A stretch of DNA of 64,000 nt from an uncultured delta proteobacterium (GCA_963760885.1 CAVXEY010000007.1:136883-200882), one strand, 5' to 3'; counted from the stretch's first letter, positions 14,602-64,000 are shown. Notes: generated by a model not told the origin, from the sequence alone. A program made the numbers and translations.

Positions 14602-14640
14602 GGTCAGGCCAATTCATGATGAAGGTCAGTCCAATTCATG
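14602..14640 (+). repeat. 17-nt direct repeat (GGTCAGGCCAATTCATG / GGTCAGTCCAATTCATG) with 22-nt periodicity
   Basis: Two copies with one mismatch, lying directly downstream of the candidate -10. Candidate operator or activator site. Confidence 0.5.
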
Positions 14641-14747
14641 CGGGAAAATCCCGGGAACTTCCTTCCATTACTTCGGAGCGTGACCGCGGACCACGGTATA
14701 GCGACTGTCAACCCCGATCAGAGCGGTACCGAACGAGGTAAAGCGCG

Positions 14748-16568: not shown

Positions 16569-16584
16569 CACGGAGGACATGGAC

Positions 16585-17760: not shown

Positions 17761-17772
17761 CCGGAGGAACGC

Positions 17773-19503: not shown

Positions 19504-19916
19504 TAGGCTTCCTCTGCAACTGGTGCTCCTACACCGGGGCCGACCTCGCGGGGACCAGCAGGATCAAGTACCAGCCCAACGTGACTGTGATCCGGGTCAT
19601 GTGCTCCGCCAGGATCGATCCCACCTTCGTGATCAAGGCGCTGACCGCGGGCGCGGATGGCGTGCTCATCTGCGGCTGCCATCCAGGCGACTGCCACTAT
19701 GTCGAAGGAAACTACAAAACCATGCGCCGCTACCCGCTGTTGAAGCGGATGCTTCGGGACTTCGGAATCGAGGAGGAAAGGGTTCGCCTGGAATGGGTCA
19801 GCGCCAGCGAGGGGCAGCGTTTCGCCGACGTCATCAACGACATGACCGAGAAGGTCCGTGCGCTTGGCCCGAGCCGGATCCGGGTCTCGCTGGAAGCCGA
19901 CAAGGTCGCGAGGTGA
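19482..19916 (+). CDS. mvhD: MvhD (methyl-viologen-reducing hydrogenase delta subunit-like [2Fe-2S] protein)
   Basis: FLCNWCSY...ICGCHPGDCHY motif set. Overlaps the hdrA end by 22 nt. Confidence 0.85.
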   Translation: MGFEPRIVGFLCNWCSYTGADLAGTSRIKYQPNVTVIRVMCSARIDPTFVIKALTAGADGVLICGCHPGDCHYVEGNYKTMRRYPLLKRMLRDFGIEEERVRLEWVSASEGQRFADVINDMTEKVRALGPSRIRVSLEADKVAR

Positions 19917-19919
19917 GTC

Positions 19920-20883
19920 GTGGATAAGAAGAAACTACAGGTTGCACTTTACTGGGGTGCGGGATGCGGGGGCTGTGACGTGGCGGTCCTCGATACCGAC
20001 GAATTCATTCTCGAGCTTGCCGAAGTGGCCGACATCCGGTTGTGGCCCATCGCGGTGGACGCCAAGTATAAGGACGTCGAGGCGATGGCTCGACGGCGAG
20101 CTCGATCTGACGATTTTCAACGGGGCCGTCCGGAACAGCGAAAACGAGCACATCGCGAAGCTGTTGCGACGCAAGAGCAAGCTGGTGGTCGCTTTCGGTT
20201 CCTGCGCCCACCTGGGCGGGATCCCGGCGTTGGCGAACCAGACAACGAAAGAGGAGATCTTCGAGCGGGCGTACGGGAAGAATCCGTCGATCGAAGAGGG
20301 GAACACCACCGTCCCCCAGGCACATACCCGGGTGAACGGTGGCGAGCTCACGATCCCCATGTTCTACAGGCGGGTCTACAAGTTGGACGACGTGGTGGAC
20401 GTGGACCTGTATGTCCCCGGCTGCCCACCGGCCCCCGAACAGGTCAAGGCGGTGCTCAAGGCGGTGGCGAGCAACCTGCTTCCGCCGAAGGGCAGCGTGG
20501 TGGGCGCTTCGGAACGCGCGGTCTGCGACGATTGCCTGAGGAAGAAGGAAGAAAAGAAGGTCAAACGATTCTACCGGCCGTGGCAGATCATCCAGGATCC
20601 CGAACGGTGCCTGATGGAACAGGGCATCCTTTGCGCCGGATCGGCGACCCGCTCCGGGTGCGGTGTGCGCTGCCCGAACAGCAACATGCCGTGCCGCGGC
20701 TGTTACGGCCCGCTGCCCAATGTCATGGACCAGGGAGCGAAGCTTCTGAGCGCGGTGGCTTCGATCATCGACAGCAAGGATCCCGAGGAGATCGACCGGA
20801 TCCTTGACGGGATTCAGGATTTCACCGGATACGCCTACCGTTTCGGGATGGCGGGATCCCTATTGCAGAGGAGAACCGGCTGA
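19920..20883 (+). CDS. mvhG: [NiFe]-hydrogenase small subunit (MvhG-like), apparently frameshifted near 20085-20095
   Basis: N-terminus MDKKKLQVALYWGAGCGGCDVAV...KDVEAM is in frame 0. The rest (DGELDLTIFNGAVRNSENE...GSCAHLGGIP...CPPAPEQ...CRGCYGP) is in frame +1. One extra nt at ~20089. Confidence 0.7.
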
Positions 20884-22349
20884 TGGCCAGAACGATCAGC
20901 ATTGATCCCATTACGCGTCTGGAAGGGCACGGGAAGATAGAGATCTTCCTCAACGACGACGGGAGCGTGAAGGATTGCCACTTCCAGATCCCCGAACTGC
21001 GCGGTTTCGAGCGTTTCGTGGTCGGCAGGCCGGTCGAAGAACTGCCGCGCATCGTCACCCGGATCTGCGGCGTTTGCCCCGCCAGCCACCATCTGGCCGG
21101 TGCGAAAGCCGTCGACGGATGCTTCGGCGGAGAATTGCCTCCGCTGGCATTCAAACTTCGTGACATGTACTACCAGGCGCATTTCATCCACAGCCACATC
21201 GCCCACTTCTTCGCGCTGGCGGCGCCGGATTTCGTCTGCGGGCCGCAATCCGACCCGGCCCTGCGCAATATCCTCGGCGTCGTCGCCAAGGTCGGCCCGG
21301 AAATCGGCGGCAAGGTAATCAAGTCGCGGTCACAGGCCCAGAGGATCCAGCAGATCATCGGCGGCAGGAGCACGCACGTGGTGTGGGCCATTCCCGGCGG
21401 TGTGTCCAAGGGTCTCAAGGCTGAAGAGCTCGCGGAAATCAAACCGATGGTCGACGAGCTCTACGATTTCACCCTCTTCTCGATAAAGCTGTTCAAGGAC
21501 GTCGTGCTGGGCAACCCGGAATACCTGGACCTGATCCTCAACGGGCCGTACAACCTCGATATACAGAACATGGGGCTGGTGGACCGGAACAATGCGCCCA
21601 ACTTCTACGACGGCAAGGTCAGGGTGGTCGATTTCAAGGGCGAGGAAATCTGCAAATATTCGTCCAAGGAATATGCCGACAACGTGGCCGAGCACGTGGA
21701 ACCGTGGTCCTATCTGAAGTTCCCTTACCTGAAGCAGCGGGGGTGGAACGGGTTCGCCGAGGGGATCGATTCCAGCATCTACATGGCGACGCCGCTTTCG
21801 CGGCTCAACGTGGCCGACAGGATGGCGACGCCGAAGGCCCAGGAGGCGTTCGAGGAGATGTTCCAGACCTTGAAACAGAAGCCGTGCCGCGCGTTGATGG
21901 CGGCCCACTGGGCCAGGTTGGTGGAAATGGTGCAGAACGCCGAGACGCTGAAGATGTACTGCGCCGACCCGGAGATCACCGGCGACCGGTACCGGGTCGT
22001 CCCGCAAGGGATCACGGGGGAAGGCGTAGGGATCGTGGAGGCGATGCGGGGCACCCTGACGCATCACTACACTTGCGACAAGAACGGGATCTGTACCAGC
22101 GCGAACCTGATCGTCGGCACCACGAACAACAATGCGGCGATCCACATGGTTACCCGGAAGGCGGCCTCCGGACTCATCAAGCCGGGAGTCGAGCCGACCG
22201 AGGGGGTCCTGAATATGGTCGAAATGGCGTTCCGGACGTTCGATCCGTGCTTCAGCTGCGCGACGCACAGCCTTCCCGGGCAGATGCCGCTCCAGGTTAA
22301 GATCTTCAAGGGAGGCGGGCTTTATCGCGAATTCCAGCGCTGCTGTTAG
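20883..22349 (+). CDS. mvhA: [NiFe]-hydrogenase large subunit (MvhA-like, group 3)
   Basis: N-terminal RICGVCPASH (L1) and C-terminal DPCFSCATH (L2) Ni-Fe ligand motifs. The C-terminal extension is consistent with protease maturation. Confidence 0.85.
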   Translation: MARTISIDPITRLEGHGKIEIFLNDDGSVKDCHFQIPELRGFERFVVGRPVEELPRIVTRICGVCPASHHLAGAKAVDGCFGGELPPLAFKLRDMYYQAHFIHSHIAHFFALAAPDFVCGPQSDPALRNILGVVAKVGPEIGGKVIKSRSQAQRIQQIIGGRSTHVVWAIPGGVSKGLKAEELAEIKPMVDELYDFTLFSIKLFKDVVLGNPEYLDLILNGPYNLDIQNMGLVDRNNAPNFYDGKVRVVDFKGEEICKYSSKEYADNVAEHVEPWSYLKFPYLKQRGWNGFAEGIDSSIYMATPLSRLNVADRMATPKAQEAFEEMFQTLKQKPCRALMAAHWARLVEMVQNAETLKMYCADPEITGDRYRVVPQGITGEGVGIVEAMRGTLTHHYTCDKNGICTSANLIVGTTNNNAAIHMVTRKAASGLIKPGVEPTEGVLNMVEMAFRTFDPCFSCATHSLPGQMPLQVKIFKGGGLYREFQRCC

Positions 22350-22373
22350 GCGGGTGAAGGGAAGGGGCGTCGG

Positions 22374-22895
22374 GTGAAGACGTTGTTGCTCGGGATGGGG
22401 AACCCCATCCTTTCCGACGATGCGGTCGGCGTGCGGCTCGCGCGCGACATCGGGAAGCGGCTGGCAGGTACCACGGGACTCAGCACCGTGGAAGAGTGCT
22501 CGGTCGGCGGCCTCAATATCCTTGATATTGTCTCGGGTTTCGACCGCCTGATCGTGCTGGATTCGATCCGTACCGTCCGGGGAATTCCCGGGGAATGGCA
22601 TCGGTTCACGTCGGATGCGCTGCGTGGTACGATGCACTTGAACAATATACATGACGTCAACTTCGCAACGGCCCTCGAATTGGGGCGGAGGATGGGGGTG
22701 CCGCTGCCGTCCGGGGAGGATATCCACATCTTCACGGTGGAGGTGCAGGATACCGAGACGTTCAGCGAGGTGATGACCGGACTGCTCGAGCGATCGTACC
22801 CGGTGTATTTCGGGGGAATCTTGATGGAAATCGAAGAGATCCTCGCGGGAAACGATGCGGATACCGCTTATCAGGAATATGGAGGTCGAACATGA
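22374..22895 (+). CDS. hydrogenase maturation endopeptidase (HyaD/HybD/FrhD family)
   Basis: MKTLLLGMGNPILSDDAVGVR...LIVLD pattern typical of this protease family. Confidence 0.8.
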   Translation: MKTLLLGMGNPILSDDAVGVRLARDIGKRLAGTTGLSTVEECSVGGLNILDIVSGFDRLIVLDSIRTVRGIPGEWHRFTSDALRGTMHLNNIHDVNFATALELGRRMGVPLPSGEDIHIFTVEVQDTETFSEVMTGLLERSYPVYFGGILMEIEEILAGNDADTAYQEYGGRT

Positions 22896-24377: not shown

Positions 24378-24473
24378 GGAAGCGGATGGGGCGCTGGTGG
24401 CCCCCCCGGACTTCAAATCCGGTCGGGAGGCGGAAACGTCTCCGGTGGGTTCGATTCCCTCACGCTTCCGCCA
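24378..24473 (+). tRNA. selC: tRNA-Sec-like (anticodon UCA, long variable arm, ~96 nt)
   Basis: GGAAGCGG...CCGGACTTCAAATCCGG...(long extra arm)...GGGTTCGATTCCC...CGCTTCCGCCA. The anticodon loop CTTCAAA gives a TCA anticodon. The acceptor stem is 7 bp plus a G.A pair, which is not ideal for a bacterial Sec tRNA. Confidence 0.7.
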
Positions 24474-25030
24474 TTCTTTTGCGAGTACCTGCACCCGCAA
24501 TACCGCTGGCGGTAGAGCCCCATCTCCCTGCTGGCGCGGACGCTTTTCAGGTACCCGTCCCCCTTTTTCAGGTCCGCCGCGACGAATCGGACCCCGGCAT
24601 GCTCCTCCTCCTCGCGTCCCACGCGGTTCACCATCGCGGCGTCTTTCTTCGGGCTGACGGTCAGCACCGTGCCGAAGGCGGGCATCCCGAGTTCCGCCGC
24701 TTTTTTCGCGGTCTCCCGAAGGCGGAGCCGGACGCACGCCTCGCACCGGCGTCCACGCTCGGGTTCGCCTTCCATCCCCCGGGCGGCGGCTTCCCACGCC
24801 TCCTCGCCGCCGGCGCCGACCACCAGGGGGAAGGGGTCTTTTTCCCGCAGGTCGAGGGTCGCATGGAGCCGTTTCCGGAATTCTTCCCGGGAATCGATGT
24901 TTGGGTTATAAAAGAAGCCGGTGACGTCGAACCGGTCCCGCAGCGCGCGAACGCCGTACGAGGCGTCGGGGGCGCAGCAGATGTGGACCAGCACTTCCGT
25001 GCCCGACGGGATGTCGCAAAGGAGATGCAC
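24413..25030 (-). CDS. queH: epoxyqueuosine reductase QueH (DUF208 family)
   Basis: HICCAPDASY, FFYNPNI and YCGCRYS motifs characteristic of QueH. The 3' 60 nt overlap the tRNA-Sec-like gene. Confidence 0.65.
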   Translation of the reverse strand: MHLLCDIPSGTEVLVHICCAPDASYGVRALRDRFDVTGFFYNPNIDSREEFRKRLHATLDLREKDPFPLVVGAGGEEAWEAAARGMEGEPERGRRCEACVRLRLRETAKKAAELGMPAFGTVLTVSPKKDAAMVNRVGREEEEHAGVRFVAADLKKGDGYLKSVRASREMGLYRQRYCGCRYSQKNGGSVRESNPPETFPPPDRI

Positions 25031-25222
25031 GACGGAACCCGCCCCCCCTGTCGGTGATCTTACAGGGGATAGTTAACCGAATTTTTTCCCGGAGGGGAAG
25101 GAGAGATTCCAACGGTACCGATCCTGCTGTTTCTGGCCACCTTCGTCACGACGCTGTTCGCCGGGTCGTTCCTTGCCGGGGGGAACCCGCTGGTACGCCC
25201 CGCGGACCTTCTCCTCGGCCTC

Positions 25223-37268: not shown

Positions 37269-38033
37269 CTACACCCCGGGAATCTTCTCCGGGGAGCGGC
37301 CGAGGAAGCCGAGGATGCCGTACAGGAGCGTCAGCGGGTGGGGAGGGCACCCGGGGATGAACAGATCGACCGGCAAGACGGCACCGACGCCGTTTTCGAC
37401 CGCATAGGAGTCCCGGAAGATCCCGCCGCTTGCGGCGCATGCGCCGATCGCGATGACGATCCGGGGCTCCGCGATCGCCTCGTACGTCTTGACAAGGGCC
37501 ACCCGCATGTTCTTCGACACGGGGCCGGTTACCAGCAGCCCGTCCGCGTGCCGGGGGGATGCGACGAAGTCGATCCCGAACCGCTGCAGATCGAATACAG
37601 GGTTTCCGAGCGCCTGCGCTTCGAGGTCGCAGCCGTTGCAGCCGCCGGCGGACACTTCCCGCAGGTGAAGCGACCGGCCGAGGAGGGACCGGATGTCCTG
37701 GGAGGCCGTCAGGGGGGGAAATTCCTGCCCTCCAAGCACAAGGTGTTCCCGCTTGCCGCACGGGAGACGGGGATCCTGCGAGAACCGGATTCCCTCGCCG
37801 CCGCATGCTTCCTCGCACAGGCCGCAGAAGACGCACCGCCCGAGGTCGATCGTCCTCTTCTCCGGGTCGATCGCGTCCGTGGCGCACGCCTTCGCACACG
37901 TCGCGGCGACACCGAGGATCCGGAACGCCTCCCCGATCTCCGGCATTCCGCGGAACGGAGACGGGAGATCACCCGCCGGCAGGGCTACGGTTACGTTTCC
38001 CGCGCTCGTTCGCTTCATTATCGATTCCAGCAT
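37269..38033 (-). CDS. group-4-hydrogenase-type small subunit (NuoB/HycG-like) with an N-terminal ferredoxin-like (HycF/NuoI-like) extension
   Basis: CVFCGLCEEAC cluster motif, then GGCNGCDLE...IAIGACAASGG...PGCPPHP (proximal [4Fe-4S] ligands). GAGG RBS before the ATG at 38033. Confidence 0.75.
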   Translation of the reverse strand: MLESIMKRTSAGNVTVALPAGDLPSPFRGMPEIGEAFRILGVAATCAKACATDAIDPEKRTIDLGRCVFCGLCEEACGGEGIRFSQDPRLPCGKREHLVLGGQEFPPLTASQDIRSLLGRSLHLREVSAGGCNGCDLEAQALGNPVFDLQRFGIDFVASPRHADGLLVTGPVSKNMRVALVKTYEAIAEPRIVIAIGACAASGGIFRDSYAVENGVGAVLPVDLFIPGCPPHPLTLLYGILGFLGRSPEKIPGV

Positions 38034-38044
38034 GGAATACCTCG

Positions 38045-39580
38045 TTAAAGGTCCGTGCCCGCGTACGACAGGTTGAAGCTCTTGTTGCACACGGGGAAGT
38101 CGGAGATGACGTTTTTCTGGACGGCGAACGACAGGGCCGGCCAGTTACGGAACGACGGGTCGACGACCTTGTAGCGCGTGATCCGCCTCTCGCCGTCGAA
38201 GACGGCCGCATGGACGATCTCACCGCGCCACCCCTCTTCGATGGACACGGCCAGACAGCGGCCGGCGGCGGGGGCGACCCCTTCCGCCGCGATCGAGCCC
38301 GGGGGCATCTCCCCGGCGAGGATGCCGGAAAGCCACTCGAACGAGGCCCGCATCTCCATGACCCGGACTCTTGCGCGGGCCATCACGTCCCCGGCGTCGA
38401 GCAGTACCTTCGCCGGGGGCGAGTCCACATAGGCCGGGGAAGGGAAGTCCCGCCGCGCGTCGACGTCCCGGCCGGAGGCGCGGGCCGCCATGCCCACGAA
38501 TTGGAGCGTCTTCGCCGTGTGCGGGAAAAGACGCCCCGTTCCTTCCATCCGGGCTCCGACCGACGGGGCATCCAGCAGCATCGTCCCGACCCCTTCCACT
38601 TCGGATCGCAGGCGCCCCAGCTCCGCCATCAGGTCTTCCGGAGCGATCCCCGGGACGCGGGGGCCGATCCCTCCGATCCGGTTCAGCCCGCGCCCGTAAC
38701 GGTTTCCGGTGATCTTCAGAAGCAGGTTCAGCGCCGCGCCGCGGAGGCGCCCGAAGTGGGCCGCCCCGAACAGGTATCCGATGTCGGTCGAGAGCCCCCC
38801 GAGGTCCCCGCAATGGTTCGAGATCCGCTCGATCTCGAGCGAGACGGCGCGCCATCGTTCCGCGGAGCGGTTCGCGGGGTTCCCCGTGATCGCTTCGAGG
38901 AGGCGGGCGCACGCGGTCGCGTGCCCCACTGCGGTGTCCCCCGAGATCGATTCGGAAAGGAGGATCTTCCCCATCCCCGGATCGCCGGGCAGGAGGGTTT
39001 CGATCCCCTTGTGCTGGTATCCCAGACGGATCTCGAGGTTCTGGATCGTCTCTCCGGCGCAGGAAAAACGGAAGTGCCCCGGTTCGATGATCCCGGCGTG
39101 GACGGGCCCCACCGCCACCTCGTGGATTCCCTCGCCCCGCACAAGAAGGAACCGGTAGGCACGGCGCGGATCGGGCGCGGGCGCATCCGCGGAACGCAAT
39201 GGGAAGAACTTCTCCGGCCACGCTTCATGGAAGCGCAGGGGGTTGAGCTCGGGATGGCCTTCCGGAACCAGGCCGAAGAGGTCGTAGACTTCCCGCTCGA
39301 ACCAATGGGTTCCGGGGCAGACGTCGGTGAACGTCCGGAAGGAGCGCGGGGAGGTCTCCACGCAGGCGTGGACGAACCGGCCCGGTGCGGCCCCCCCGGC
39401 GACCGCGTGAAGAAGAAATCGTCCGGAAGATGGCTCCTCCGCGAACAACGCGAGGAGGCGGTCGCCGCCGGTGGATGTTTCACGGAGGAACGCGCGGAAC
39501 GCTTCCTCCTTCAGCGGGGAGGTGTTGCCGAGGTCGAACGTGCGGACACAGCGCATCGACTTGTCCCTTTCGCCGTTCAT
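38045..39580 (-). CDS. group-4-hydrogenase-like large subunit (NuoC+NuoD / HycE-like) lacking the NiFe cysteine ligands (Ehr-like)
   Basis: NuoC-like N-domain (EVYDLFGL...). NuoD-like GPVHAGIIEPGHFRF. The L1 position reads SISGDTAVGH instead of RxCGxCxxxH. The C-terminus reads DFPVCNKSF instead of DPCxxCxxR. Confidence 0.8.
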   Translation of the reverse strand: MNGERDKSMRCVRTFDLGNTSPLKEEAFRAFLRETSTGGDRLLALFAEEPSSGRFLLHAVAGGAAPGRFVHACVETSPRSFRTFTDVCPGTHWFEREVYDLFGLVPEGHPELNPLRFHEAWPEKFFPLRSADAPAPDPRRAYRFLLVRGEGIHEVAVGPVHAGIIEPGHFRFSCAGETIQNLEIRLGYQHKGIETLLPGDPGMGKILLSESISGDTAVGHATACARLLEAITGNPANRSAERWRAVSLEIERISNHCGDLGGLSTDIGYLFGAAHFGRLRGAALNLLLKITGNRYGRGLNRIGGIGPRVPGIAPEDLMAELGRLRSEVEGVGTMLLDAPSVGARMEGTGRLFPHTAKTLQFVGMAARASGRDVDARRDFPSPAYVDSPPAKVLLDAGDVMARARVRVMEMRASFEWLSGILAGEMPPGSIAAEGVAPAAGRCLAVSIEEGWRGEIVHAAVFDGERRITRYKVVDPSFRNWPALSFAVQKNVISDFPVCNKSFNLSYAGTDL

Positions 39581-40992
39581 GAGAACGCGACCACGGTGGA
39601 GAGCCGCTCCAGGGTCTTGTACAAGCCCGCGGGGACGTGGAGCCCCAGCCACAGGGAGGCAAGAAGCAGGACGCACGCCGGGAGGAGGCACCAAAGTTCC
39701 GGGCCGGCAAGTTTTCGCGGCACGCCTTCCCCGAAGACCATGCCGCTGCCGTACATGAGGAAGGATCCGAAAAGAATCGCGAGCAGGACGAGGTATGCGA
39801 GGGAAACGGCCAGGTGCCCGCCCGCGATCCCCCCGACGAGGATGCCGAACTCGCTCCAGAAGGCGCCGAACGGCGGGGATCCCGTGATCGCGAGGACCCC
39901 GCCGAACAGCAGGACGCCGCGCAGCGGAGACTCCCTCAGGATCCCGTGGATATGCCGGATCTTCTGCGTGCCGAACCGCAGGATGAGGTCTCCGGCGACG
40001 AGGAAGAGCAGGACCTTGGCCACGGAGTGGTTCAGCACGTGCAGCAGTGCTGCCGGTCGGGCGGCCCCGCCGAACCCGAGCCCGAGGACGACGATCCCCA
40101 TGTTCTCGATCGAGGAAAAGGCGAGCAACCGCTTGATGTCCCGCTGGACCGCCACGAGGAGCGCGGGAACCGCGATCGATAGAATCCCGAAGAGGATCAG
40201 CAGGGGCGAAGCGTACGCACCGGGGACCGCCGGGGCGACCCGCAGGATCGAGAGCAGGGCGCAGTTCAGCAAGACCCCCGACAGCATCGCGGAAGACGGC
40301 GCGGGAGCCTGGCTGTGCGCGTCCGGAAGCCACGTGTGCATCGGCGCGAGCCCCATCTTGGTACCGTACCCTACGAGAAAGAAGAGGAACGCCAGCCGCA
40401 GGAAGCGTGGGTCGAGCCGCTTCGCGGCAAGGGGAAGCGCCGTGTACGTCAGCGGGATGTCCCCGGCCGCCCGCGAGAGGAAGATGATCCCGAGGAAGGC
40501 CAGGGCGATCCCGACCGAGCAGATGAGCAGGTACTTCCAGGCGGCCTCCATTCCTCGGCGGTCCCCGTGCAGGTAGATGAGCGGGGCCGAGAAGAGCGTC
40601 GTGGCCTCTACGGCGACCCATTGCAGGGCGAGGTGGTGGGAGCAGACGACCACGACCATCGAGAGGACGAACAGGTTGGTCCACACGTGATACATCTGCA
40701 CCTTGGCCGGGCCGATGTGCCCTCCCTCGAGCTCCCGCCGGAAATACCCGTACGCGTACACGGAGCACAGGAAGTGAATGCCGGCGACGATCAGGAGGAA
40801 GTAGGATCCGAGCTCGTCGAGCCGCAGAAGTTCGCCCCACGCGGCGATGCGGGGGGACAGCCCCTGGATCACCGCGCCGGAAAGGAGCGCGGTCGCGCCG
40901 ACGACGGTTCCGAGGGCGGCCTGCCAAGGGGCGCGCGACAGAAGTGCCAGGATCACCCCGGTCAACGGGGCGAGGAGCAGCAGCGGGATCAT
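39577..40992 (-). CDS. antiporter-like membrane subunit (NuoN/NuoM/HyfF-like)
   Basis: 472 aa, about 14 TM helices. Conserved TKMGLAPMHTWLPDAH motif of the Mrp/NuoLMN family. Confidence 0.8.
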   Translation of the reverse strand: MIPLLLLAPLTGVILALLSRAPWQAALGTVVGATALLSGAVIQGLSPRIAAWGELLRLDELGSYFLLIVAGIHFLCSVYAYGYFRRELEGGHIGPAKVQMYHVWTNLFVLSMVVVVCSHHLALQWVAVEATTLFSAPLIYLHGDRRGMEAAWKYLLICSVGIALAFLGIIFLSRAAGDIPLTYTALPLAAKRLDPRFLRLAFLFFLVGYGTKMGLAPMHTWLPDAHSQAPAPSSAMLSGVLLNCALLSILRVAPAVPGAYASPLLILFGILSIAVPALLVAVQRDIKRLLAFSSIENMGIVVLGLGFGGAARPAALLHVLNHSVAKVLLFLVAGDLILRFGTQKIRHIHGILRESPLRGVLLFGGVLAITGSPPFGAFWSEFGILVGGIAGGHLAVSLAYLVLLAILFGSFLMYGSGMVFGEGVPRKLAGPELWCLLPACVLLLASLWLGLHVPAGLYKTLERLSTVVAFS

Positions 40993-40994
40993 CC

Positions 40995-41621
40995 CTAATC
41001 CTTCAACGTGTGGATTTTCCGGACGTCCATGTGCGTGAACGTCCGCTGGATCTTGAGCATCAGGATCCCCATCAGGAAGACTGCGACGAACAGGTCGAGG
41101 AAGATCCCCAGCTCGATCGGCAGCGTGAACTCGCTGCCCGACGCCGCGCCGAACAGGAAAATCCCGTTTTCGAGGACGACGAACCCGATCACCTGGGTGA
41201 CGGCCTTGACGCGCGTGGTCATCATGAGGAGGCCGGAAAAAAGGAGCGTGAGTCCCGCGGCGGCGCCGAGCTGGTCCTGGCCGGAAAGCCCGAACCGGTC
41301 GCAGGCGACGAAGGCGGAAAGGGCGAGCACCCCCGTAAGAAGGACGGAGGTCTTCGTCGATACGAGCGATTCCGTCTCCCGCTTGATCTCCAGGCGGGAA
41401 ACGGCGTGGGTGAGGATCGCCGGAATCGCCACACTCTTCACGGCGACGGTGGCGAGGCCCAGCGCCACGGCGCGCCACAAGGGCCGGGGCGACGCGAGGA
41501 AGGGGAGGAGGGCGAGCAGAACTCCTTGCGCGGCCAGTGACCGGATTGCGGTGGGGATGCGCTCCGTCATGGCCATGTGGAGGCCGAGGAGGAGAAGGAG
41601 AACGGTGACGGTGCCCATCAT
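40995..41621 (-). CDS. HyfE-like small membrane subunit of hydrogenase-4-type complexes
   Basis: 208 aa with 6 TM helices. Position and size match HyfE/NuoK-like subunits. Confidence 0.7.
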   Translation of the reverse strand: MMGTVTVLLLLLGLHMAMTERIPTAIRSLAAQGVLLALLPFLASPRPLWRAVALGLATVAVKSVAIPAILTHAVSRLEIKRETESLVSTKTSVLLTGVLALSAFVACDRFGLSGQDQLGAAAGLTLLFSGLLMMTTRVKAVTQVIGFVVLENGIFLFGAASGSEFTLPIELGIFLDLFVAVFLMGILMLKIQRTFTHMDVRKIHTLKD

Positions 41622-41631
41622 CTTTCCCCCC

Positions 41632-42534
41632 TCACCCCGCGAACCGGATGGCGAGCGCGATGGATGCCAGCACGGTGGCGACCAGCAGGTACGAGGCGGT
41701 CCGCGACAGCCGCATCCGCGCCAACCCCGCCTCCGTCGCGCCGATCAGCACCCCCGAAAGGACGACCTTCACGACGGCACCCGGGATCGCGAGAAACGTC
41801 GGCAGGGAGAACATCTCGGGGAAGAGGGTCCCGGAAACAAGGGCGGAAAAGAGGACCAGGCGAACGCCGGACGCCAGCTGGATCATCGCGAGATCGACCC
41901 CCGCGTGGTCCAGCACCATCGCTTCGTGGATCATCGTCAGTTCGAGGTGCGTGGCCGGGTCGTCCACCGGGATCCGCGCGTTTTCCGCCAGGAGCAGCAG
42001 GAACATCGTCCCGGCAAGAAGGATCACCTCCGGCCGCCAGAGCACCCTTCCCGGGGGAACGCCCGCGATCATCCCGCTCACCGTGTCCGCGCCCCCGAGG
42101 TACGCCAGGCCGCAGAACGAAAGGATCAGCGCCGGCTCCGCCATCGCCGAGATGGCCACTTCCCGGCTGGACCCCAGCCCTCCGAACGCGCTTCCCGTGT
42201 CCATCCCGGCAAGGGTCTGGAAGAACCGGGGCAGCGCCATCAGGTAGAGAAAGAGGACGAAGTGCATCGGGAGCGGAACGTCGCGGGACCATAAGGGGGT
42301 CGCCGCCGCGAGGACCAGCGAAGCGCCGAGGACGACCGGGGCGGACAGGTCGAACACCCACGATGCCGTCGTGCTGCGGACGATCCCCCTGCGGAACAGT
42401 TTCCAAAGGTCCAGGTATGGCTGGAACACCGGCGCTCCTTGCCGGCAGGAGAGGAACGCTTTGGTCTTCCGGACGACTCCGGCAAGGAGGGGTCCGAGAA
42501 GGACGAAGAGCCCGATGTGCGCGGCGAAGTACAT
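41632..42534 (-). CDS. NuoH/HycD/HyfC-like membrane subunit
   Basis: 300 aa with 8 TM helices. NuoH-family loop motifs (LVSGTLFPE...). Confidence 0.8.
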   Translation of the reverse strand: MYFAAHIGLFVLLGPLLAGVVRKTKAFLSCRQGAPVFQPYLDLWKLFRRGIVRSTTASWVFDLSAPVVLGASLVLAAATPLWSRDVPLPMHFVLFLYLMALPRFFQTLAGMDTGSAFGGLGSSREVAISAMAEPALILSFCGLAYLGGADTVSGMIAGVPPGRVLWRPEVILLAGTMFLLLLAENARIPVDDPATHLELTMIHEAMVLDHAGVDLAMIQLASGVRLVLFSALVSGTLFPEMFSLPTFLAIPGAVVKVVLSGVLIGATEAGLARMRLSRTASYLLVATVLASIALAIRFAG

Positions 42535-42549
42535 GAATGCGTCTCTCCC

Positions 42550-44541
42550 TTAATGGAAAAAAACCAGCAGAAGCACGATGGTACCCAGGATGTAGCCGAG
42601 ATACAGGTGGATGTACCCCGGGTGCAGGCGGCGCGCCTGGAACGCGGCCTGCACGAACAGGCGGTATACAGGGAGGTACAGGCCGTTTTCGAGGAGATCG
42701 TGGAAATGCGTCTCGTGCTCCACCTCGAGCAGGAACCTTCCGGAAAGCCGTTCCGTGCGGATGGTGTGCGGACGGAGGATCCCCTGAAAGACGTGCAGGA
42801 TCGGGTCGGCGAACGACGACGCGGTGTACTGCATCCGTGGGGTGGCGTTCGGGAAGCCACACCCCCACGTTTCCCCCGCGCGTTGGCCGTTCCGTCGAAG
42901 CAGAAACGTCCGGAGGAGCCACAGCACCCCGATCGCGGCCGCCAGCGCGATCGCCACGGTGAACGGTTTCCCGCCTGCCGCCGGGATCGCGACGCCCGCC
43001 GGCGCACCCGCCGACGAGAGGAAGGAGGTGATCTCCATGAGACGGTCCAGGACGAGGGAGGGGAAGACCCCGAGCCCGAGGCAGAAAAGGGCCAGCGTCC
43101 CCATCGGGAATTCCATCGCGACGGACGGGTCGCGGGCCGCGGACGCCTGGGGGCTGCGCGCGTTTCCGAGGAAGACCGTCCCCACGACCTTGACGAAGCA
43201 GACGACCGCCAACCCCCCGATCAGTGCGAGCCCCGCCATCGCGGCGAGGTAGACTCCTCCGATCCCCGCGCCCCGGGCGGCGGCCCACAGCCCCCGGTAG
43301 ATGGCGAACTCGCTCGCGAACCCGTTGAACGGGGGTACGGCCGAGATGGCGAGGGATCCCGCGAGGAACGCGATCCCTGTGACCGGCATCCCTCGCATCA
43401 ACCCGCCGAGTTTCTCGATGTTGCGGGTGTGCGCGCCCTGGAGGACCGCGCCGGCTCCCAGGAAAAGGAGCGCCTTGAACGTGGCGTGGTTCAGAACATG
43501 GAACAACCCCCCGACGAGGAGAAGTCGCGCGGCGTCGGGCCGGCCCGTGGCCTGGCACAGGGAGGCCGCCCCGACCCCGATCAGGATGATTCCGATGTTC
43601 TCGACGCTGTGGAAGGCGAGCAGCCGCTTCAGGTCGTGCTGGACGATCGCGTAGAGGACGCCGAAGACGCCGGAGAGCAGGCCCAGGGCGAGCAAGGTCG
43701 CCCCGAAGGAGGCGGGAGGAGCGGGGAGCAGGTAGAAGAGGAAGCGGACGATCCCGTAGATCCCCATCTTGATCATGACGCCGGACATGACGGCCGAAAC
43801 CGGCGATGGCGCCTCCGGATGGGCGTACGGCAACCAGATGTGGAACGGGAAGATCCCCGCCTTCGTGCCGAACCCCAGCAGGGCGAACCCGAACGTGGCG
43901 GCGAGGATCGCCGGGTCGGAGATGGGGACCGGTGCGAACCCGTTGAAGGAGAACGAGCCCGTCGTCTGCTCGAGGAAGAGGAACGCCAGGAGGATCCCGC
44001 CCGTCCCGATGTGCGTCGCGATCAGGTAGATAAGCCCCGCCTGCCGCGCCTCCCGCTTCTCGTGGTTGAGGACGACGAGGAAGTAGGAAGCGAGGCTCAT
44101 TCCCTCCCAGCCGAGGAGGAACGACAGCATGTCTCCGGCGGATACGACGAAGGCCATGGAGAGAAGGAGCAGATTCAGGAGCAGCGGCGCGGCCTGCCCC
44201 CTCCGGCGCGCGTCGAACTCCTTCATGTACCCGGCGGCGTACACGGAGACGAGGAACCCGATGAAGAAGATCAGCGCGAGGAAGAACGCGGAGAGCCCGT
44301 CGAGGAACAGCTCGGAGGCCACCCACGGCACGGGGGCCGGAAGCGGGATGCGCATCGGGGCTTCCCTCATCGAGGCGGCCAGCGTGACGGCCAGGCCGAG
44401 GAAGGAGGCGACGGCGCCCCCCCCGAATCCAACGACGCGCGAGCGTCGAGGGTCCCGGATCAGGAGCGCAAGGACGCCGGGGACGAGGAAGGCGGATGCG
44501 ACAACAAACGACAACGCCGAAGGCATCGTGGACGGCTCCAT
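42550..44541 (-). CDS. antiporter-like membrane subunit (NuoL/HyfB/HycC-like)
   Basis: 663 aa. TKAGIFPFHIWLPYAHPEAPSPVSAVMSG motif and long multi-TM layout of NuoL/HyfB. Confidence 0.8.
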   Translation of the reverse strand: MEPSTMPSALSFVVASAFLVPGVLALLIRDPRRSRVVGFGGGAVASFLGLAVTLAASMREAPMRIPLPAPVPWVASELFLDGLSAFFLALIFFIGFLVSVYAAGYMKEFDARRRGQAAPLLLNLLLLSMAFVVSAGDMLSFLLGWEGMSLASYFLVVLNHEKREARQAGLIYLIATHIGTGGILLAFLFLEQTTGSFSFNGFAPVPISDPAILAATFGFALLGFGTKAGIFPFHIWLPYAHPEAPSPVSAVMSGVMIKMGIYGIVRFLFYLLPAPPASFGATLLALGLLSGVFGVLYAIVQHDLKRLLAFHSVENIGIILIGVGAASLCQATGRPDAARLLLVGGLFHVLNHATFKALLFLGAGAVLQGAHTRNIEKLGGLMRGMPVTGIAFLAGSLAISAVPPFNGFASEFAIYRGLWAAARGAGIGGVYLAAMAGLALIGGLAVVCFVKVVGTVFLGNARSPQASAARDPSVAMEFPMGTLALFCLGLGVFPSLVLDRLMEITSFLSSAGAPAGVAIPAAGGKPFTVAIALAAAIGVLWLLRTFLLRRNGQRAGETWGCGFPNATPRMQYTASSFADPILHVFQGILRPHTIRTERLSGRFLLEVEHETHFHDLLENGLYLPVYRLFVQAAFQARRLHPGYIHLYLGYILGTIVLLLVFFH

Positions 44542-44613
44542 TTCATCGGATCGTTGGAGGTCGACGGGCCGGGCGCGTTGGAACGGAGGTCACGGTCCTA
44601 TCAGTGGGAGGAT

Positions 44614-44640
44614 GCTATAGGAAATCCAGGGGCAGGTCAA
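44614..44640 (-). promoter_or_regulatory. sigma70-like promoter candidate for the Ehr-like operon (TTGACC-15 nt-TATAGC)
   Basis: On the minus strand, -35 TTGACC overlaps the histidine-kinase stop codon. TATAGC lies 15 nt downstream. The spacer is short, so confidence is low. Confidence 0.3.
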
Positions 44641-46253
44641 CCGCTGTCCAGGACCTCGCGTACCTTCCGGGCGAAACTTTCCGCGGTGAACGGCTTCTGC
44701 AGAAAAGGGATCCCGTCCTCCAGGACACCATGACGGAGGATGGCGTCGTCGGTGTATCCCGACATGTACAGGGTCCGCAGGTCCGGGCGGTGGAGCCGGA
44801 TCCGCTCGCCGAGCTCCCTCCCGCTCATCTTCGGCATCTCGACGTCGGTCAGCAGCAGATGGATCTCCCCGCGATGGGCTTCGGAGAGCAGCAACGCCTC
44901 GCGGCCGCTCCCCGCCTCGAGCACCTTGTAGCCGTTCCCCGACAGGATCTCCCTCGCGAGCCGGCGTACCACCTCCTCGTCTTCCGCCAGAAGGACCGTC
45001 TCGGTCCCCGGGGAAGGGCGGGGAAGGTGCGGGCGATCCGCCCCCGGGGCGTCGTCTTCGGGGGCCTCTACCCGCGGCAGGTAGATGAGGAACGTCGACC
45101 CGTGTTCGGCGGCGCTGTTCACCCGGATGTGCCCGCCACTCTGCTGCACGATGCCGTAGACCGTGGCCAGGCCTAGGCCGGTCCCTTTTCCCCTCTCCTT
45201 CGTTGTGAAAAACGGCTCGAACAGGTGGGCCTGGGTCTCGTCGCTCATCCCCTGACCCGTGTCCAGCACGGAGAGGAGGACGTGCGGTCCCGGAACCACA
45301 TCGAGGTGGGCGGCCGCGTAGGAGGGGGAAAGATCCGCGTCGGCGGTCGCGATGGTGATGCGGCCCCCGTCGGGCATCGCGTCCCGGGCGTTGACCACCA
45401 GGTTCACGATCACGTGCTCGATCTGCCCCGGGTCGGCCTTCACCCGCGAGAGGGAAGGGGAGAGGTCGACCGACAGCTCGATGTCCTCGCCGATCAGGCG
45501 GCGCAGCATCGGTCCCATCTTCGTCACCACGGTGTTCAGGTCCAGAACCTCCGGCTGCAGGATCTGGCGGCGGCTGAAGGCGAGCAGCTGGCGCGTGAGC
45601 GCCGCGGCGCGGTCTCCCGCCTTCCGTATCTCCTCCACGTCCCGGCGAAGCGTCGAATAGTCGGGGAGTCGGTGGAGCAGAAGGTCGGAGTAGCCAGAGA
45701 TGGCGGTCAGCAGGTTGTTGAAGTCGTGGGCGACGCCCCCTGCAAGCCTGCCCACGGCCTCCATCTTCTGCGACTGGCGGAGCTGTTCCTCCACGATCGT
45801 CAGCCGTTCCCGTGTTTCTTCGGCCGCCTTCCGCTCGGTGACGTCCATCAGGATCGACATGATCCCGTAGATGGTCCCGTCCGGGCGTCGAAGAGGGGCG
45901 GTGGATACGCTGACGACGATCGGGGACCCGTCGGCCCGCCTCCGGTGCAGTTCGGGCTCGGTGAACACCTCCCCGAGGAGGGCGCGTCGGCGAAGCTCGA
46001 GGAACTCGGCCTGCTTCTCGGCCGGGACGAAGGGGAGGCGCATCCCGAGGGCCTCGTTCTCGGGCCACCCGAAGATCCGCTCGGCCGCCGGGTTCCACAT
46101 CGTGACGACGCCTTCGGGGTCGAACGTGACGATCGCGAGAGGGGACGCCTCGATGAGGGTGGCGAGGATCCGGGACGCCGCCGGGCGGTCGATCTCCTCC
46201 GCGTCGGGTAACGATATGGGTTGCTCCACGCTCATTGGGAATCGTTTCGGCAA
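44637..46253 (-). CDS. hybrid sensor histidine kinase (PAS - HisKA - HATPase - receiver)
   Basis: PAS ([13 protein letters not shown]). H-box [10 protein letters not shown]. HATPase N/G boxes ([16 protein letters not shown]). C-terminal REC with [12 protein letters not shown]. Confidence 0.8.
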
Positions 46254-63214: not shown

Positions 63215-63296
63215 CGGTGCGGATTTCGATTCCGTTTGACGGCGTGTAACATCTTTGGTATACAGTATTCATTCCGAATAACCGAGGGTGACCCGC

Positions 63297-64000
63297 ATGG
63301 CTGACGAGAAACGCACTCTATCCCCGATGGATCGGGTGTGGGACTTCTTCATCTCCGTCAAGCTGGCCATCGTCACCCTGATCGTGCTTGCCTCCACGTC
63401 GATCCTCGGCACGATCATCGAGCAGAACCAGCCCCTCGAGAAGTACCACCAGATCTACGAGGATTGGGCGTTCGCCCTCATGGAGCGCCTCAACCTGTTC
63501 GATATGTACCACTCCACGTGGTTCCTCCTGATCCTCGTCCTGTTCACCGTGAACCTGTCCTGCTGCACCATCGACCGCTTCCCGAAGATGCTGAAAGTGG
63601 TGCGGAACCCGAGGACGAAACTCGACAGAAGCCTCGAAAAATCACTGTCGCTCTCGGACCGGTGGAAGCGGAAAGGGACCCTTTCGGAGTGGGCGGGGAA
63701 ATACGCGGAGGCGCTCTCCGGTTCCTTCGCGAAGCCGAAGGTCACCGAGGATGGGGGCGAGGTGCACCTGTACGCCGAGACCGGCGTGGCCTCCCGGTTC
63801 GGCGTCTATGTGACCCACCTTTCCATCGTCATCATCTTCATCGGGGCGATCGTCGGCAACGTCGTCGGTTTCAAGGGATACGTGAACATCACCGAAGGGG
63901 AGGCGATCACGCAGGTCCCCATCCGGGGTGGGAGCCGGATTCAGGACCTGGGATTCACCGTCCGGTGCAACTCGTTCACCCTCGAGACGTACCCGAGCGG
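63297..64000 (+). CDS. resB: cytochrome c biogenesis protein ResB/Ccs1 (system II), 5' part (runs off window)
   Basis: MADEKRTLSPMDRVWDFFISVKLAIVTLIVLASTSILGTIIEQN... matches the ResB N-terminal TM/periplasmic architecture. No stop before the window end. Confidence 0.75.
   Translation, partial: MADEKRTLSPMDRVWDFFISVKLAIVTLIVLASTSILGTIIEQNQPLEKYHQIYEDWAFALMERLNLFDMYHSTWFLLILVLFTVNLSCCTIDRFPKMLKVVRNPRTKLDRSLEKSLSLSDRWKRKGTLSEWAGKYAEALSGSFAKPKVTEDGGEVHLYAETGVASRFGVYVTHLSIVIIFIGAIVGNVVGFKGYVNITEGEAITQVPIRGGSRIQDLGFTVRCNSFTLETYPS

Follow-up and report, generated by a model that had tools for sequence, protein, structure and literature searches.

What does a membrane complex built like a group 4 [NiFe] hydrogenase do once its large subunit has lost the cysteines that bind the metals? 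The question is raised by six genes on the minus strand of a 64,000-nucleotide stretch of DNA from an uncultured delta proteobacterium, the whole of which is referred to here as the window. Judged by gene content and sequence motifs, the region (window positions 37269-44541) is an ehrABCDLS operon encoding an Ehr (energy-converting-hydrogenase-related) complex and is an ordinary member of a described family, which has carried its name since 2005. An earlier note on this DNA had grouped the same six genes into an operon, and all six are real, with unchanged coordinates (Table 1). They are tightly packed, with junctions of 2-15 nucleotides (nt) or a 4-nt overlap. For ehrS, the open frame extends to a GTG at 38090, yet the homologues begin at an ATG, which gives the start listed in the table. 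All six open reading frames (ORFs) are intact, and comparison with four relatives gave dN/dS values of 0.09-0.31 across the genes (0.20-0.28 for ehrL), indicating purifying selection.

Table 1 Features of the ehr locus and of the control hydrogenase gene, in window coordinates
Feature	Position	Strand	Description
ehrA	42550-44541	minus	HyfB/NuoL-like antiporter-type membrane subunit, 663 aa
ehrB	41632-42534	minus	HycD/HyfC/NuoH-like membrane subunit, 300 aa
ehrC	40995-41621	minus	HyfE-like small membrane subunit, 208 aa
ehrD	39577-40992	minus	HyfF/NuoN-like antiporter-type membrane subunit, 471 aa
ehrL	38045-39580	minus	NuoC+NuoD / HycE-like large subunit without Ni-Fe ligands, 511 aa
ehrS	37269-38033	minus	Fusion of HycF/NuoI-like domain and HycG/NuoB-like small subunit, 254 aa
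L1 remnant	38921-38950	minus	EhrL residues 211-220, SISGDTAVGH, aligned to HycE RVCGICGFAH
L2 remnant	38048-38074	minus	EhrL C-terminus, residues 503-511, NLSYAGTDL, aligned to HycE DPCYSCTDR
Degenerate 2x[4Fe-4S] region	37803-37919	minus	EhrS residues 39-77; motif 1 degenerate, motif 2 intact
Hybrid sensor kinase	44637-46253	minus	PAS-HisKA-HATPase-REC, directly upstream of ehrA
Sigma-70-like promoter candidate	44612-44640	minus	TTGACC-17-TAGCAT, 9/12 matches; 95-nt gap before ehrA
Control [NiFe] hydrogenase large subunit	20883-22349		Intact RICGVCPASHH and DPCFSCATH

The large subunit EhrL combines Complex1_30kDa and Complex1_49kDa domains (Pfam), and its top relative of solved structure is HycE (7z0s_E, 1e-55), with which it shares 31% identity. 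HycE was also the top Foldseek match (TM 0.77) of the AlphaFold model of EhrL, which has a pTM of 0.84 and is unreliable at the pocket segments 141-188 and 488-511 (pLDDT <50). The complex thus has the group 4 large-subunit fold and a homologous membrane arm, and neither the L1 (RxCGxCxxxH) nor the L2 (DPCxxCxx[HR]) signature of group 4 [NiFe] hydrogenases is found in EhrL. The segment that the earlier note had read as L1 is borne out by alignment to HycE, with Ser213 and Thr216 in place of the two cysteines. For L2, the same note had picked DFPVCNKSF, which is the wrong segment, as the HMMER alignment sets NLSYAGTD opposite DPCYSCTD; here, the cysteines are replaced by Ser505 (94% of the family) and Gly508 (98%), and the arginine by Leu511 (87%). 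The ligand loss that it had deduced therefore stands, whereas its count of at least three out of four was too low, since all four are replaced. Because EhrL has lost all four Ni-Fe cysteines, the Ehr complex is, on the evidence of these alignments, not a hydrogenase. A sequencing artefact does not account for the missing cysteines, as the window also encodes a true [NiFe] hydrogenase large subunit with both signatures intact (Table 1). The former active site is instead predicted to be lined with the family-invariant polar residues Glu166, Asp215, Arg452, Asn499, Lys500, Ser505, Tyr506 and Asp510. The second-sphere residues Glu166 and Arg452 are common to the sister sequences that keep four cysteines, while Asp215 is new, being present in 92% of 105 Ehr representatives where those sisters have Val or Ile.

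The small subunit EhrS matches Oxidored_q6 (4e-30) and Fer4 in Pfam and is 45% identical to HycG and 32% to HycF. It retains the four cysteines previously assigned to the proximal [4Fe-4S] cluster, as its GGCNGC, GACAASGG and PGCPP motifs align to the equivalent motifs of HycG, HyfI and NuoB. These ligands (Cys132, Cys135, Cys199 and Cys229) are conserved in >90% of the family and are missing solely in ORFs that seem frameshifted or mis-called. The N-terminus, described before simply as ferredoxin-like, is indeed so and is in addition a HycF/NuoI homologue, one of whose two clusters is lost in this clade. In motif 1, LGVAATCAKACA, Cys1 and Cys2 are lost and Cys3 and Cys4 retained, and the same loss is seen in 5/5 close relatives examined, while motif 2 (CVFCGLCEEAC) is intact. 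Across the family, 40 of 63 loci keep all eight ferredoxin-type cysteines and likewise all 12 cysteines for three clusters. The present clade, Desulfobacterales and Melainabacteria have lost one ferredoxin-type cluster, Gemmatimonadota the other, and two Omnitrophota loci both. Judging from the cysteine ligands, several lineages can dispense with ferredoxin-type clusters, but not with the proximal one.

The membrane arm comprises four subunits, two of them antiporter-like. EhrA matches Proton_antipo_M (4e-55, Pfam) and the NCBIfam model for hydrogenase-4 subunit B (1e-180, below the cut-off of the model), and is 36% identical to E. coli HyfB; its channel residues Glu146 (TM5), Lys227 (TM7) and Glu411 (TM12) align to HycC/MbhH and are found in at least 95% of 77 family sequences. 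Similarly, EhrD matches Proton_antipo_M (3e-49, Pfam) and the HyfF model (3.5e-119, NCBIfam), is 42% identical to HyfF and has Glu129, Lys212, Lys326 and Glu380 kept in at least 95% of 63 sequences. The predicted proton-channel Glu and Lys residues are hence conserved in both subunits. EhrB matches NADHdh (3e-26, Pfam), is 31-32% identical to HycD and HyfC and carries the loop ENxRIPVDDPATHLELTMIHE, which is near-invariant in the family. Finally, EhrC matches the HyfE model for a hydrogenase-4 membrane subunit (4e-18, NCBIfam) and, weakly, Oxidored_q2/NuoK, with its C-terminal 78 residues being 33% identical to HyfE. Neither NuoA nor NuoJ was matched in the operon with Pfam and NCBIfam models, so the full membrane core of complex I (NuoA, H, J, K, L, M, N) is not encoded there.

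Relatives of EhrL are found in at least 599 species genomes from many phyla, and the A-B-C-D-L-S order in nearly all of 80 related loci. In a neighbor-joining (NJ) tree, EhrL falls within a clade of all 105 representatives with no or one cysteine (bootstrap 22/60), separate from the four-cysteine hydrogenases, which lie outside as sister, and not inside true hydrogenases. Recognised Ehr was represented in the comparison by Geobacteraceae and Melainabacteria loci together with the published descriptions of GSU0739-GSU0745; the present locus groups with it by the NJ clade and by motifs common to the loci of both lineages, and has the six core gene types, the CxxC-less large subunit and the retained proximal ligands. 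The suggestion of the earlier note that the complex is not a hydrogenase and probably Ehr is therefore supported by the loss of 4/4 ligands, the cysteine-poor clade and the gene order, the operon being named ehrABCDLS in Methylacidiphilum (PMC6688271). Its other suggestion, a complex-I-ancestor-like module, is not, as the subunits are closer to Hyf/Hyc (29-45% identity) than to Nuo (22-39%), and those sequences nearest to EhrL that keep four cysteines are true hydrogenases. Loss of the Ni-Fe site is complete and maintained by selection, and the NJ tree (bootstrap 22/60) is consistent with its having a single origin. The literature searched held no experiments on the function of any Ehr complex.

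The gene directly upstream of ehrA on the same strand is, as had been noticed before, a PAS hybrid kinase, which domain identification confirmed. Relatives with 78-85% identical EhrL also have a PAS-domain gene at this position, namely a full hybrid kinase in two loci (L087 and L088) and a 158-aa PAS-only gene in a third (L086). In more distant relatives, the position is occupied by an HTH_17+PTS_EIIA_2 gene, the sole recurrent neighbour of ehr loci, which the kinase replaces here. A regulator gene adjoins the operon in most loci, and its adjacency suggests that the PAS hybrid kinase is probably a dedicated regulator setting ehr expression. The sigma-70-like promoter candidate is a consensus match only; no second site of this kind occurs within 10 kb (0.5 sites expected), and the 95 nt ahead of ehrA contain no sigma-54 site. 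Genes of the FdhF, NuoEFG, HycB or CooS type do not adjoin the operon. The lack of an adjacent donor module had been noticed for this locus alone and turns out to be a property of the whole family, as no donor or acceptor module was found in 88/88 loci (up to 10 kb on each flank of ehrL), and FdhF, NuoE, NuoF, NuoG and HycB/HyfA are absent from all of these loci and from the window.

At roughly 55% probability, the Ehr complex may be a redox-linked translocator of ions (H+ or Na+) on a Hyf-type scaffold, with an acceptor other than protons. Its donor would be soluble and of low potential, ferredoxin being the simplest choice, as for Ech and Mbh, and would reduce the remaining ferredoxin-type cluster of EhrS, from which the electron would move to the proximal cluster. 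The missing docking or donor subunit in the 88 loci and in the window is in keeping with a donor that diffuses freely. The polar pocket where EhrL, EhrS and EhrB meet would then be the site at which a non-proton acceptor is reduced or the charge changes, and, as happens in complex I and FHL, the antiporter-like subunits could be driven by this event. Menaquinone would be the simplest acceptor candidate in this organism, given that the window also contains genes for a QmoC-like quinone-interacting subunit and for ResB. Yet, a quinone cannot be the acceptor family-wide, since some of the lineages with Ehr relatives are reported to have no quinone synthesis (PMC6349859). Two further findings weigh against parts of this mechanism. 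The repeated loss of ferredoxin-type clusters is hard to square with an obligatory electron wire through them, and the canonical NuoD quinone ligands are missing, as a phmmer alignment to 2fug_4 sets Nqo4 His38 opposite Ile165 and Tyr87 opposite Gly214.

A possible, although tentative, alternative is that Ehr does not reduce quinones, is more than a simple relic and represents a third independent conversion of a hydrogenase, into an ion transporter gated by redox or energy state or into a machine with unrecognised chemistry. Here, the Ni-Fe site would have become a buried carboxylate/hydroxyl pocket (Asp215, Ser/Thr216 and Ser505, with Glu166, Arg452 and Lys500), the proximal cluster alone would be indispensable while the ferredoxin-type clusters could be dropped, and a PTS-EIIA-type transcription factor, or the PAS hybrid kinase in this clade, would turn the complex on.

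Rather unlikely is a specific version of the translocator explanation, in which Ehr is a ferredoxin:menaquinone oxidoreductase, likened to Fpo-like or cyanobacterial NDH-1 enzymes, that works as a minimal complex-I-like pump with the quinone at the EhrL/EhrS/EhrB interface. The architecture would suit it, being a complex I core minus the NADH module, and the host probably has a quinone pool, as judged from the QmoC-like gene, with no other acceptor module encoded nearby. However, the residues that stand in for the quinone ligands of complex I are invariant (Ile165) or nearly so (Gly214) across Ehr; NuoA and NuoJ are missing, the subunits are nearer Hyf/Hyc than Nuo, and Ehr occurs in Riflemargulisbacteria, for which no complete quinone pathway was found (PMC6349859).

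It is likewise doubtful that Ehr is a cation/proton antiporter or ion-homeostasis module comparable to Mrp, without electron turnover, whose peripheral arm serves as a plug or as a gate sensing redox or energy state. Such a role would account for the repeated independent loss of either or both ferredoxin-type clusters alongside retention of the proximal cluster and the membrane-arm residues, and for the lack of linked donor or acceptor genes in 88 loci. The change of the Ni-Fe site to carboxylate and hydroxyl groups (Asp215, Ser/Thr216, Ser505), not to new metal or cofactor ligands, also favors it, as does the EIIA-type regulator as conserved neighbour; in proteobacteria, EIIA-Ntr controls K+ transport. 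In Methylacidiphilum, a role in pH homeostasis has been suggested (PMC6688271). Nevertheless, keeping all 12 cysteines, as the 40 loci do, would be costly if the clusters were purely structural, the present clade keeps two clusters under purifying selection, and MrpB, MrpE, MrpF and MrpG are absent.

It is quite improbable that Ehr is a reductase whose substrate, be it sulfur, polysulfide, a disulfide or some other small molecule, reacts at the proximal cluster or beside it. The precedent is the membrane-bound sulfane reductase of Pyrococcus (MBS/MBX), a group 4 hydrogenase descendant that lost its Ni-Fe site and still conserves energy, having taken on a new acceptor, and its large subunit is a detectable homologue of EhrL. 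Moreover, EhrL has the extra conserved subfamily cysteines Cys174 and Cys498 (the latter 7 residues upstream of the first L2 position), with Cys507 added in many members. As these occur in just about 35-57% of Ehr representatives, they cannot define the chemistry of the family, and the MbsL match (6u8y_L) is very distant at 4e-5 compared with 1e-55 for HycE, with no sulfur-metabolism genes linked to ehr loci.

Very improbable is a non-functional hydrogenase relic that drifts as selection relaxes, the status given to the Ehr of G. sulfurreducens in a paper that reports missense mutations accruing in ehrA-2 and ehrB over long-term culture on electrodes (PMC13194489). While the catalytic site is lost, this view is already contradicted by the conservation seen in the sequences, namely six intact ORFs under purifying selection, gene order and motifs shared across the family, and near-invariant replacement residues filling the former site. 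In addition, the G. sulfurreducens subunits are made and detected in proteomes, with abundances shifting with the electron donor (PMC7894505). That Ehr is still a hydrogenase, with an unconventional metal site or ligands from another subunit, is barely credible: the proton-gate Glu166, the canopy-type Arg452 and His220 are retained, yet Ser, Thr, Ser and Gly replace the four ligands, neither Hyp nor protease genes accompany ehr in the 88 loci and the only maturation protease in the window follows a Vhu-type hydrogenase.

The locus, whose host is probably a Deferrimicrobium-like lineage of Desulfobacterota, adds one member to the known family of at least 599 species, and a loss of the Ni-Fe site that is maintained by selection contradicts the recent statement of a non-functional Ehr (PMC13194489). 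The family-level data (no linked modules, an EIIA neighbour and dispensable ferredoxin-type clusters) constrain hypotheses on how complex-I-like machines couple redox chemistry to ion pumping and on how hydrogenases are repurposed.

Among known systems, Mrp-type antiporters were considered for the operon and rejected, since EhrA and EhrD have MrpA/D-like domains but no other gene of the operon could be MrpB, E, F or G, and since the Fe-S peripheral arm sets it apart from the MrpA-G set, which has no redox arm. An assignment to MBS/MBX was rejected as well, given the distant match and the six genes; a complete Mrp module is among the 13 subunits of MBS, and Ehr has an independent origin in the Hyf-like branch. 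Respiratory complex I (NuoB, CD, H, I, K, L, M, N) has L-shaped core modules homologous to Ehr, and both share antiporter-like subunits with Glu/Lys channel residues and a proximal, N2-like cluster. In contrast to complex I, Ehr has two antiporter-like subunits instead of three and lacks the His38/Tyr87 quinone ligands, NuoA, NuoJ and NuoEFG, and EhrL is only 22% identical to NuoCD. The best characterised homologues of every Ehr subunit are found in E. coli hydrogenase-4 (HyfABCDEFGHIJ) and hydrogenase-3/FHL (HycBCDEFG); the ehrABCDLS gene order matches hyfB-C-E-F-G-H-I, and the EhrL fold matches HycE. Unlike these enzymes, Ehr lacks the Ni-Fe cysteines, the C-terminal protease-processing tail, HyfA/HycB, HyfD and HyfJ/HycH, has HycF and HycG fused, and comes without an FdhF partner or an FhlA/HyfR-type regulator. 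The nearest cysteine-containing sequences (35-40% identity) are the four-cysteine 'Ehr-like' group 4 hydrogenases, e.g., of Desulfotomaculum, which have been placed nearest Ehr and described as close to group 4f (PMC3569383, PMC10284858). They have DFPLxNKSF, Glu166, Arg452 and Tyr506 in common with Ehr and likewise lack the C-terminal tail, but keep AERxCGxCxxSH and LCYxCxDR where Ehr has Asp215, Ser505, Gly508 and Leu511. In four Geobacteraceae loci (L024, L071, L072 and L078; 39-41% identity), the GD[TS] and DFP.CNKSFNLSY motifs are shared, whereas Geobacteraceae have two ehrA copies (seven genes in total), an HTH_17+EIIA gene upstream and the ferredoxin-type cluster missing from EhrS here, compared with one ehrA and the PAS hybrid kinase in the window. 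Overall, the Ehr of G. sulfurreducens (GSU0739-GSU0745) and the ehrABCDLS operon of Methylacidiphilum have the same subunit types, the same A-B-C-D-L-S order and the same CxxC-less large subunit as the operon described here.

Six densely packed minus-strand genes occupy window positions 37269-44541, with junctions of 2-15 nt gaps and one 4-nt overlap, and their products match Pfam and NCBIfam families at E-values of 1e-18 to 1e-180. They encode an energy-converting-hydrogenase-related (Ehr) complex, a type first defined in Geobacter as kin to Ech hydrogenases and complex I without the Ni-Fe cysteines (PMC3569383, PMC7894505, PMC6349859, PMC10284858), and are named here after the six-gene form ehrABCDLS of Methylacidiphilum (PMC6688271). 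The earlier note's reading of an Ehr-like complex that is not a hydrogenase was essentially right, as the four Ni-Fe ligands are absent, the sequence belongs to a cysteine-poor clade and the scaffold is Hyf-like. The operon belongs, as a typical member, to a family that is known and widespread but uncharacterised; peculiar to its clade are the single ehrA, the loss of one Fe-S cluster and the exchange of the regulator. No functional test of Ehr is reported in the literature searched, and Rfam and tRNA scans gave no match tied to the operon.

Features of the ehr operon and other genes in the window
Feature	Position	Strand	Length	Assignment
ehrA	42550-44541	-	663 aa	HyfB/NuoL-like
ehrB	41632-42534	-	300 aa	HycD/NuoH-like
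ehrC	40995-41621	-	208 aa	HyfE-like
ehrD	39577-40992	-	471 aa	HyfF/NuoN-like
ehrL	38045-39580	-	511 aa	NuoC + NuoD/HycE-like
ehrS	37269-38033	-	254 aa	HycF/NuoI-like domain fused to HycG/NuoB
Hybrid kinase	44637-46253	-		PAS-HisKA-HATPase-REC
HdrA-like	14748-16568	+		
QmoC-like	16525-17760	+		
HdrA-like	17773-19503	+		
ORF	between HdrA-like 17773-19503 and VhuG-like 19858-20883	+	134 aa	no family match
VhuG-like	19858-20883	+		small subunit
VhuA-like	20883-22349	+		[NiFe] large subunit, CxxC pairs intact
Maturation protease	22374-22895	+		
tRNA-Sec	24378-24473	+		anticodon TCA
Putative QueH ORF	24413-25072 (predicted limits)	-		
Flavoprotein	60928-62760	+	610 aa	GltD/NfnB-like, NAD(P)H-dependent, Fe-S
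ResB-like	63282-63998	+		cytochrome c biogenesis, continues past window end

Alignment of EhrL to E. coli HycE (phmmer, 7z0s_E, E = 1e-55) places SISGDTAVGH opposite RVCGICGFAH at the L1 motif and NLSYAGTD opposite DPCYSCTD at L2, so that Ser213, Thr216, Ser505 and Gly508 replace all four Ni-Fe ligands. The ligand loss proposed earlier thus stands, although "at least three" should be four, and the DFPVCNKSF segment then taken for L2 sits seven residues upstream of the aligned NLSYAGTD. The Vhu/Mvh-type [NiFe] large subunit in the same window has intact motifs (RICGVCPASHH and DPCFSCATH) and is followed by a maturation protease gene, and the missing EhrL cysteines are therefore not due to sequence quality.

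Only five positions discriminate Ehr from its four-cysteine sisters, namely Asp215, which lies between the two former L1 cysteine positions, Pro475, Ser505, Gly508 and the C-terminal Leu511. Both groups keep Glu166 (EPGH motif), Arg452 (xRGE motif), Asn499, Lys500, Tyr506 and Asp510, all of which lie around the Ni-Fe site of hydrogenases. Where complex I has the quinone-ligating His38 and Tyr87 of Thermus Nqo4, EhrL has Ile165 and Gly214, which are invariant and nearly invariant, respectively, in the Ehr family. Cys174 and Cys498 are conspicuous in the EhrL subfamily of the window, yet a new redox-active pair was rejected as a family feature, since they occur in only about 50-57% of Ehr representatives. 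Ehr also lacks the C-terminal tail that is removed from HycE and HyfG in maturation; this was rejected as a sign of lost maturation because the four-cysteine sister hydrogenases have no such tail either. An AlphaFold2 model of the EhrL monomer, made to check for clustering of the new invariant residues, has a confident core and pLDDT < 50 in the site-forming segments 141-188 and 488-511, and gives no site geometry.

The replaced motifs, xxGD[TS]xx[GA]H and DFP[LV]CNKSFNLSY[ACS]G.DL, are found in all of the best 120 homologues among 5.8 billion proteins, and the closest of these (84-97% identity) come from 'Candidatus Deferrimicrobium' and a 'Deltaproteobacteria CG_4_9' MAG. At least 599 genomes carry a relative in a scan with one genome per species. 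Among the matches listed, the A-B-C-D-L-S order is almost universal in 80 related loci, which span Omnitrophota, Planctomycetota, Verrucomicrobiota, Desulfobacterota, Gemmatimonadota, Spirochaetota, Bacteroidota, Acidobacteriota, Melainabacteria, Rokubacteria and others. In a census of the best 150 representatives at 50% clustering, 121 lack every one of the four Ni-Fe cysteines, 12 have the first only and 17 have all four; the last group, which includes Desulfotomaculum and Planctomycetota sequences, reads AERxCGxCxxSH ... LCYxCxDR. A neighbour-joining tree, the only kind built, with a NuoCD root and E. coli references, places all cysteine-poor sequences including the query (105/105) in one clade, whose sister is a four-cysteine sequence, and HycE and HyfG branch further away; the bootstrap for monophyly in this tree is modest (22/60 under a strict criterion). 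Judged from these comparisons and from the dN/dS values given below, ligand loss is a family trait under selection.

Several related loci depart from the common layout. A Geobacteraceae MAG (L024) has two complete ehr operons in tandem on one contig (4882-12292 and 13473-20563), together with an additional ehrA-like gene in inverted orientation and a divergently oriented gene for an EIIA regulator. Three Rokubacteria loci (L061, L077 and L079) carry a NuoB-like (C-terminal) ehrS segment before ehrA, giving the order S-A-B-C-D-L, and none was detected behind ehrL; still further upstream, the opposite strand carries a kinase-like gene with a weak match to the window's kinase. In L088, a relative with 85% identity, the ehrS frame (11513-12400) shifts once near the 'AIAEP' codons, which is why the gene caller missed it; the likely cause is an assembly error (the source is a long-read metagenome), and not pseudogene formation.

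EhrS in the window keeps all four proximal-cluster cysteines when aligned to HycG, HyfI and NuoB, as had been noticed from the sequence. Its ferredoxin-type domain, aligned with HycF, HyfH and NuoI, reads LGVAATCAKACA at motif 1 (CxxCxxCxxxCP), with Cys1 and Cys2 lost, while motif 2 (CVFCGLCEEAC) is complete; all five compared relatives of 64-79% EhrL identity share this motif 1 loss. If ligation follows the usual 2x[4Fe-4S] scheme, the lost cluster is the one bound by motif 1 Cys1-3 with motif 2 Cys4, and the retained one is bound by motif 2 Cys1-3 with motif 1 Cys4. In terms of the Thermus structure, the retained cluster would correspond to N6b, which adjoins N2. The order of complex I clusters in the literature is N5-N6a-N6b-N2. 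Among 63 family loci, 40 keep all 12 EhrS cysteines; loci of Desulfobacterales and Melainabacteria show the same loss as the window, the other ferredoxin-type cluster is gone from five Gemmatimonadota loci, and both are gone from two Omnitrophota loci. Proximal-cluster cysteines are absent only in ORFs of frameshifted or mis-called appearance. Several lineages can thus do without one or both ferredoxin-type clusters, but the proximal cluster is indispensable.

On one side, the operon is flanked by genes for pyruvate carboxylase subunits, MetW and TauE/DUF1634, of which the last-named is convergent with it. On the other, the hybrid PAS histidine kinase already described directly upstream on the same strand was confirmed, 95 nt from ehrA, and beyond it lie a divergent alpha-glucan phosphorylase and a DedA-family gene. 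The 95-nt gap contains a candidate sigma-70-like site (TTGACC-17-TAGCAT, a consensus match only). All-against-all clustering of flank ORFs from the 80 loci returned a single recurrent neighbour, a protein of ~225 aa with HTH_17 and PTS_EIIA_2 domains (AIPHPR-type histidine motif). Its gene lies directly upstream of ehrA in ~34 of the 53 loci with upstream sequence, in many phyla and at a distance of about 0.1-0.8 kb, and no mention of this link was found in the literature searched. This suggests that PTS or PTS-Ntr phosphorylation state may control ehr. The PTS-Ntr link led to a search for sigma-54 sites (TGGCAC-N5-TTGC), which gave fewer matches than chance and none in the gap upstream of ehrA; terminator matches were at chance level, with none convincing after ehrS. 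The EIIA gene is still present in relatives with 64-71% identical EhrL, and those at 73-85% have a PAS-domain gene instead (L087 and L088 have the complete hybrid kinase, and L086 has a gene for 158 aa with PAS only), followed by a divergent phosphorylase as in the window; the regulator was therefore swapped within the window's clade.

A donor module had been reported missing from the vicinity, and E. coli FdhF, NuoE, NuoF and NuoG probes indeed found no match in the window or 88 Ehr loci at E <= 1e-3. The same holds for HypA, HypB, HycI, HycH and HyfJ, and the HycB and HyfA probes matched nothing but the EhrS N-terminal domain. Genes for SulP transporters (in 6 loci) and for sigma-54 activators (in 5) were too rare to be conserved partners. 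The ehr operon has a probable dedicated regulator adjacent and no linked partner genes, and the 'FDH-Ehr' idea proposed for Margulisbacteria (PMC6349859) is therefore without gene-linkage support in this sample.

The genes at 14748-22895 look like a Mvh/Vhu-Hdr/Qmo-type hydrogenase cluster, possibly electron-bifurcating, which could supply reduced ferredoxin from ~15 kb away. G+C is 0.54 at 14001-16000, at the start of this cluster, against 0.62-0.70 elsewhere, and 12800-14700 has no family match; this segment may be foreign or non-coding. A tRNA-Sec gene, recognised by both Rfam (74 bits) and ARAGORN, overlaps the putative QueH ORF at its 3' end, and the organism therefore uses selenocysteine. 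The flavoprotein and ResB-like genes are consistent with a respiratory anaerobe using ferredoxin and cytochromes.

In the membrane arm, at least 95% of family members conserve EhrA Glu146, Lys227 and Glu411, which align to the TM5 Glu, TM7 Lys and TM12 Glu/Lys of HycC and MbhH, as well as EhrD Glu129, Lys212, Lys326 and Glu380. EhrB has a near-invariant ENxRIPVDDPATHLELTMIHE loop where NuoH/HycD have their acidic TM5-6 loop. On this evidence, the machinery for ion translocation looks intact. Ehr is a complete scaffold without Ni-Fe ligands, with conserved proximal-cluster and channel residues and genes under selection. A soluble low-potential carrier such as ferredoxin would pass electrons to EhrS, and a redox or charge event in a polar pocket at the L/S/B interface would then drive ion translocation. 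Menaquinone is a plausible acceptor in this host because of the QmoC-like gene, and unlikely family-wide because the quinone ligands are missing and Riflemargulisbacteria have Ehr without a complete quinone pathway having been found (PMC6349859).

A serious alternative is a redox-gated or redox-independent cation/proton antiporter, consistent with the repeated loss of ferredoxin-type clusters. Each of the six genes has a dN/dS of 0.09-0.31 against four relatives, and both an evolutionary relic and, with all four ligands replaced, a cryptic hydrogenase are very unlikely. The conservation data contradict a 2026 paper that called Ehr non-functional (PMC13194489). In one proteomic study, all Geobacter Ehr subunits were more abundant with formate than in hydrogen-containing conditions (PMC7894505). 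What Ehr does is an interesting question at the level of the family, more than for this locus.

With E. coli Hyf, Hyc and Nuo proteins as references, all six subunits are nearer Hyf/Hyc than Nuo. EhrA and EhrD are 36% and 42% identical to HyfB and HyfF, the identity of EhrL is 31% with HycE and 22% with NuoCD, and that of EhrS is 45% with HycG and 39% with NuoB. The gene order is that of the E. coli hyf operon (hyfB-C-E-F-G-H-I), from which ehr differs in having no hyfA, hyfD or hyfJ and in the fusion of its hyfH and hyfI equivalents.
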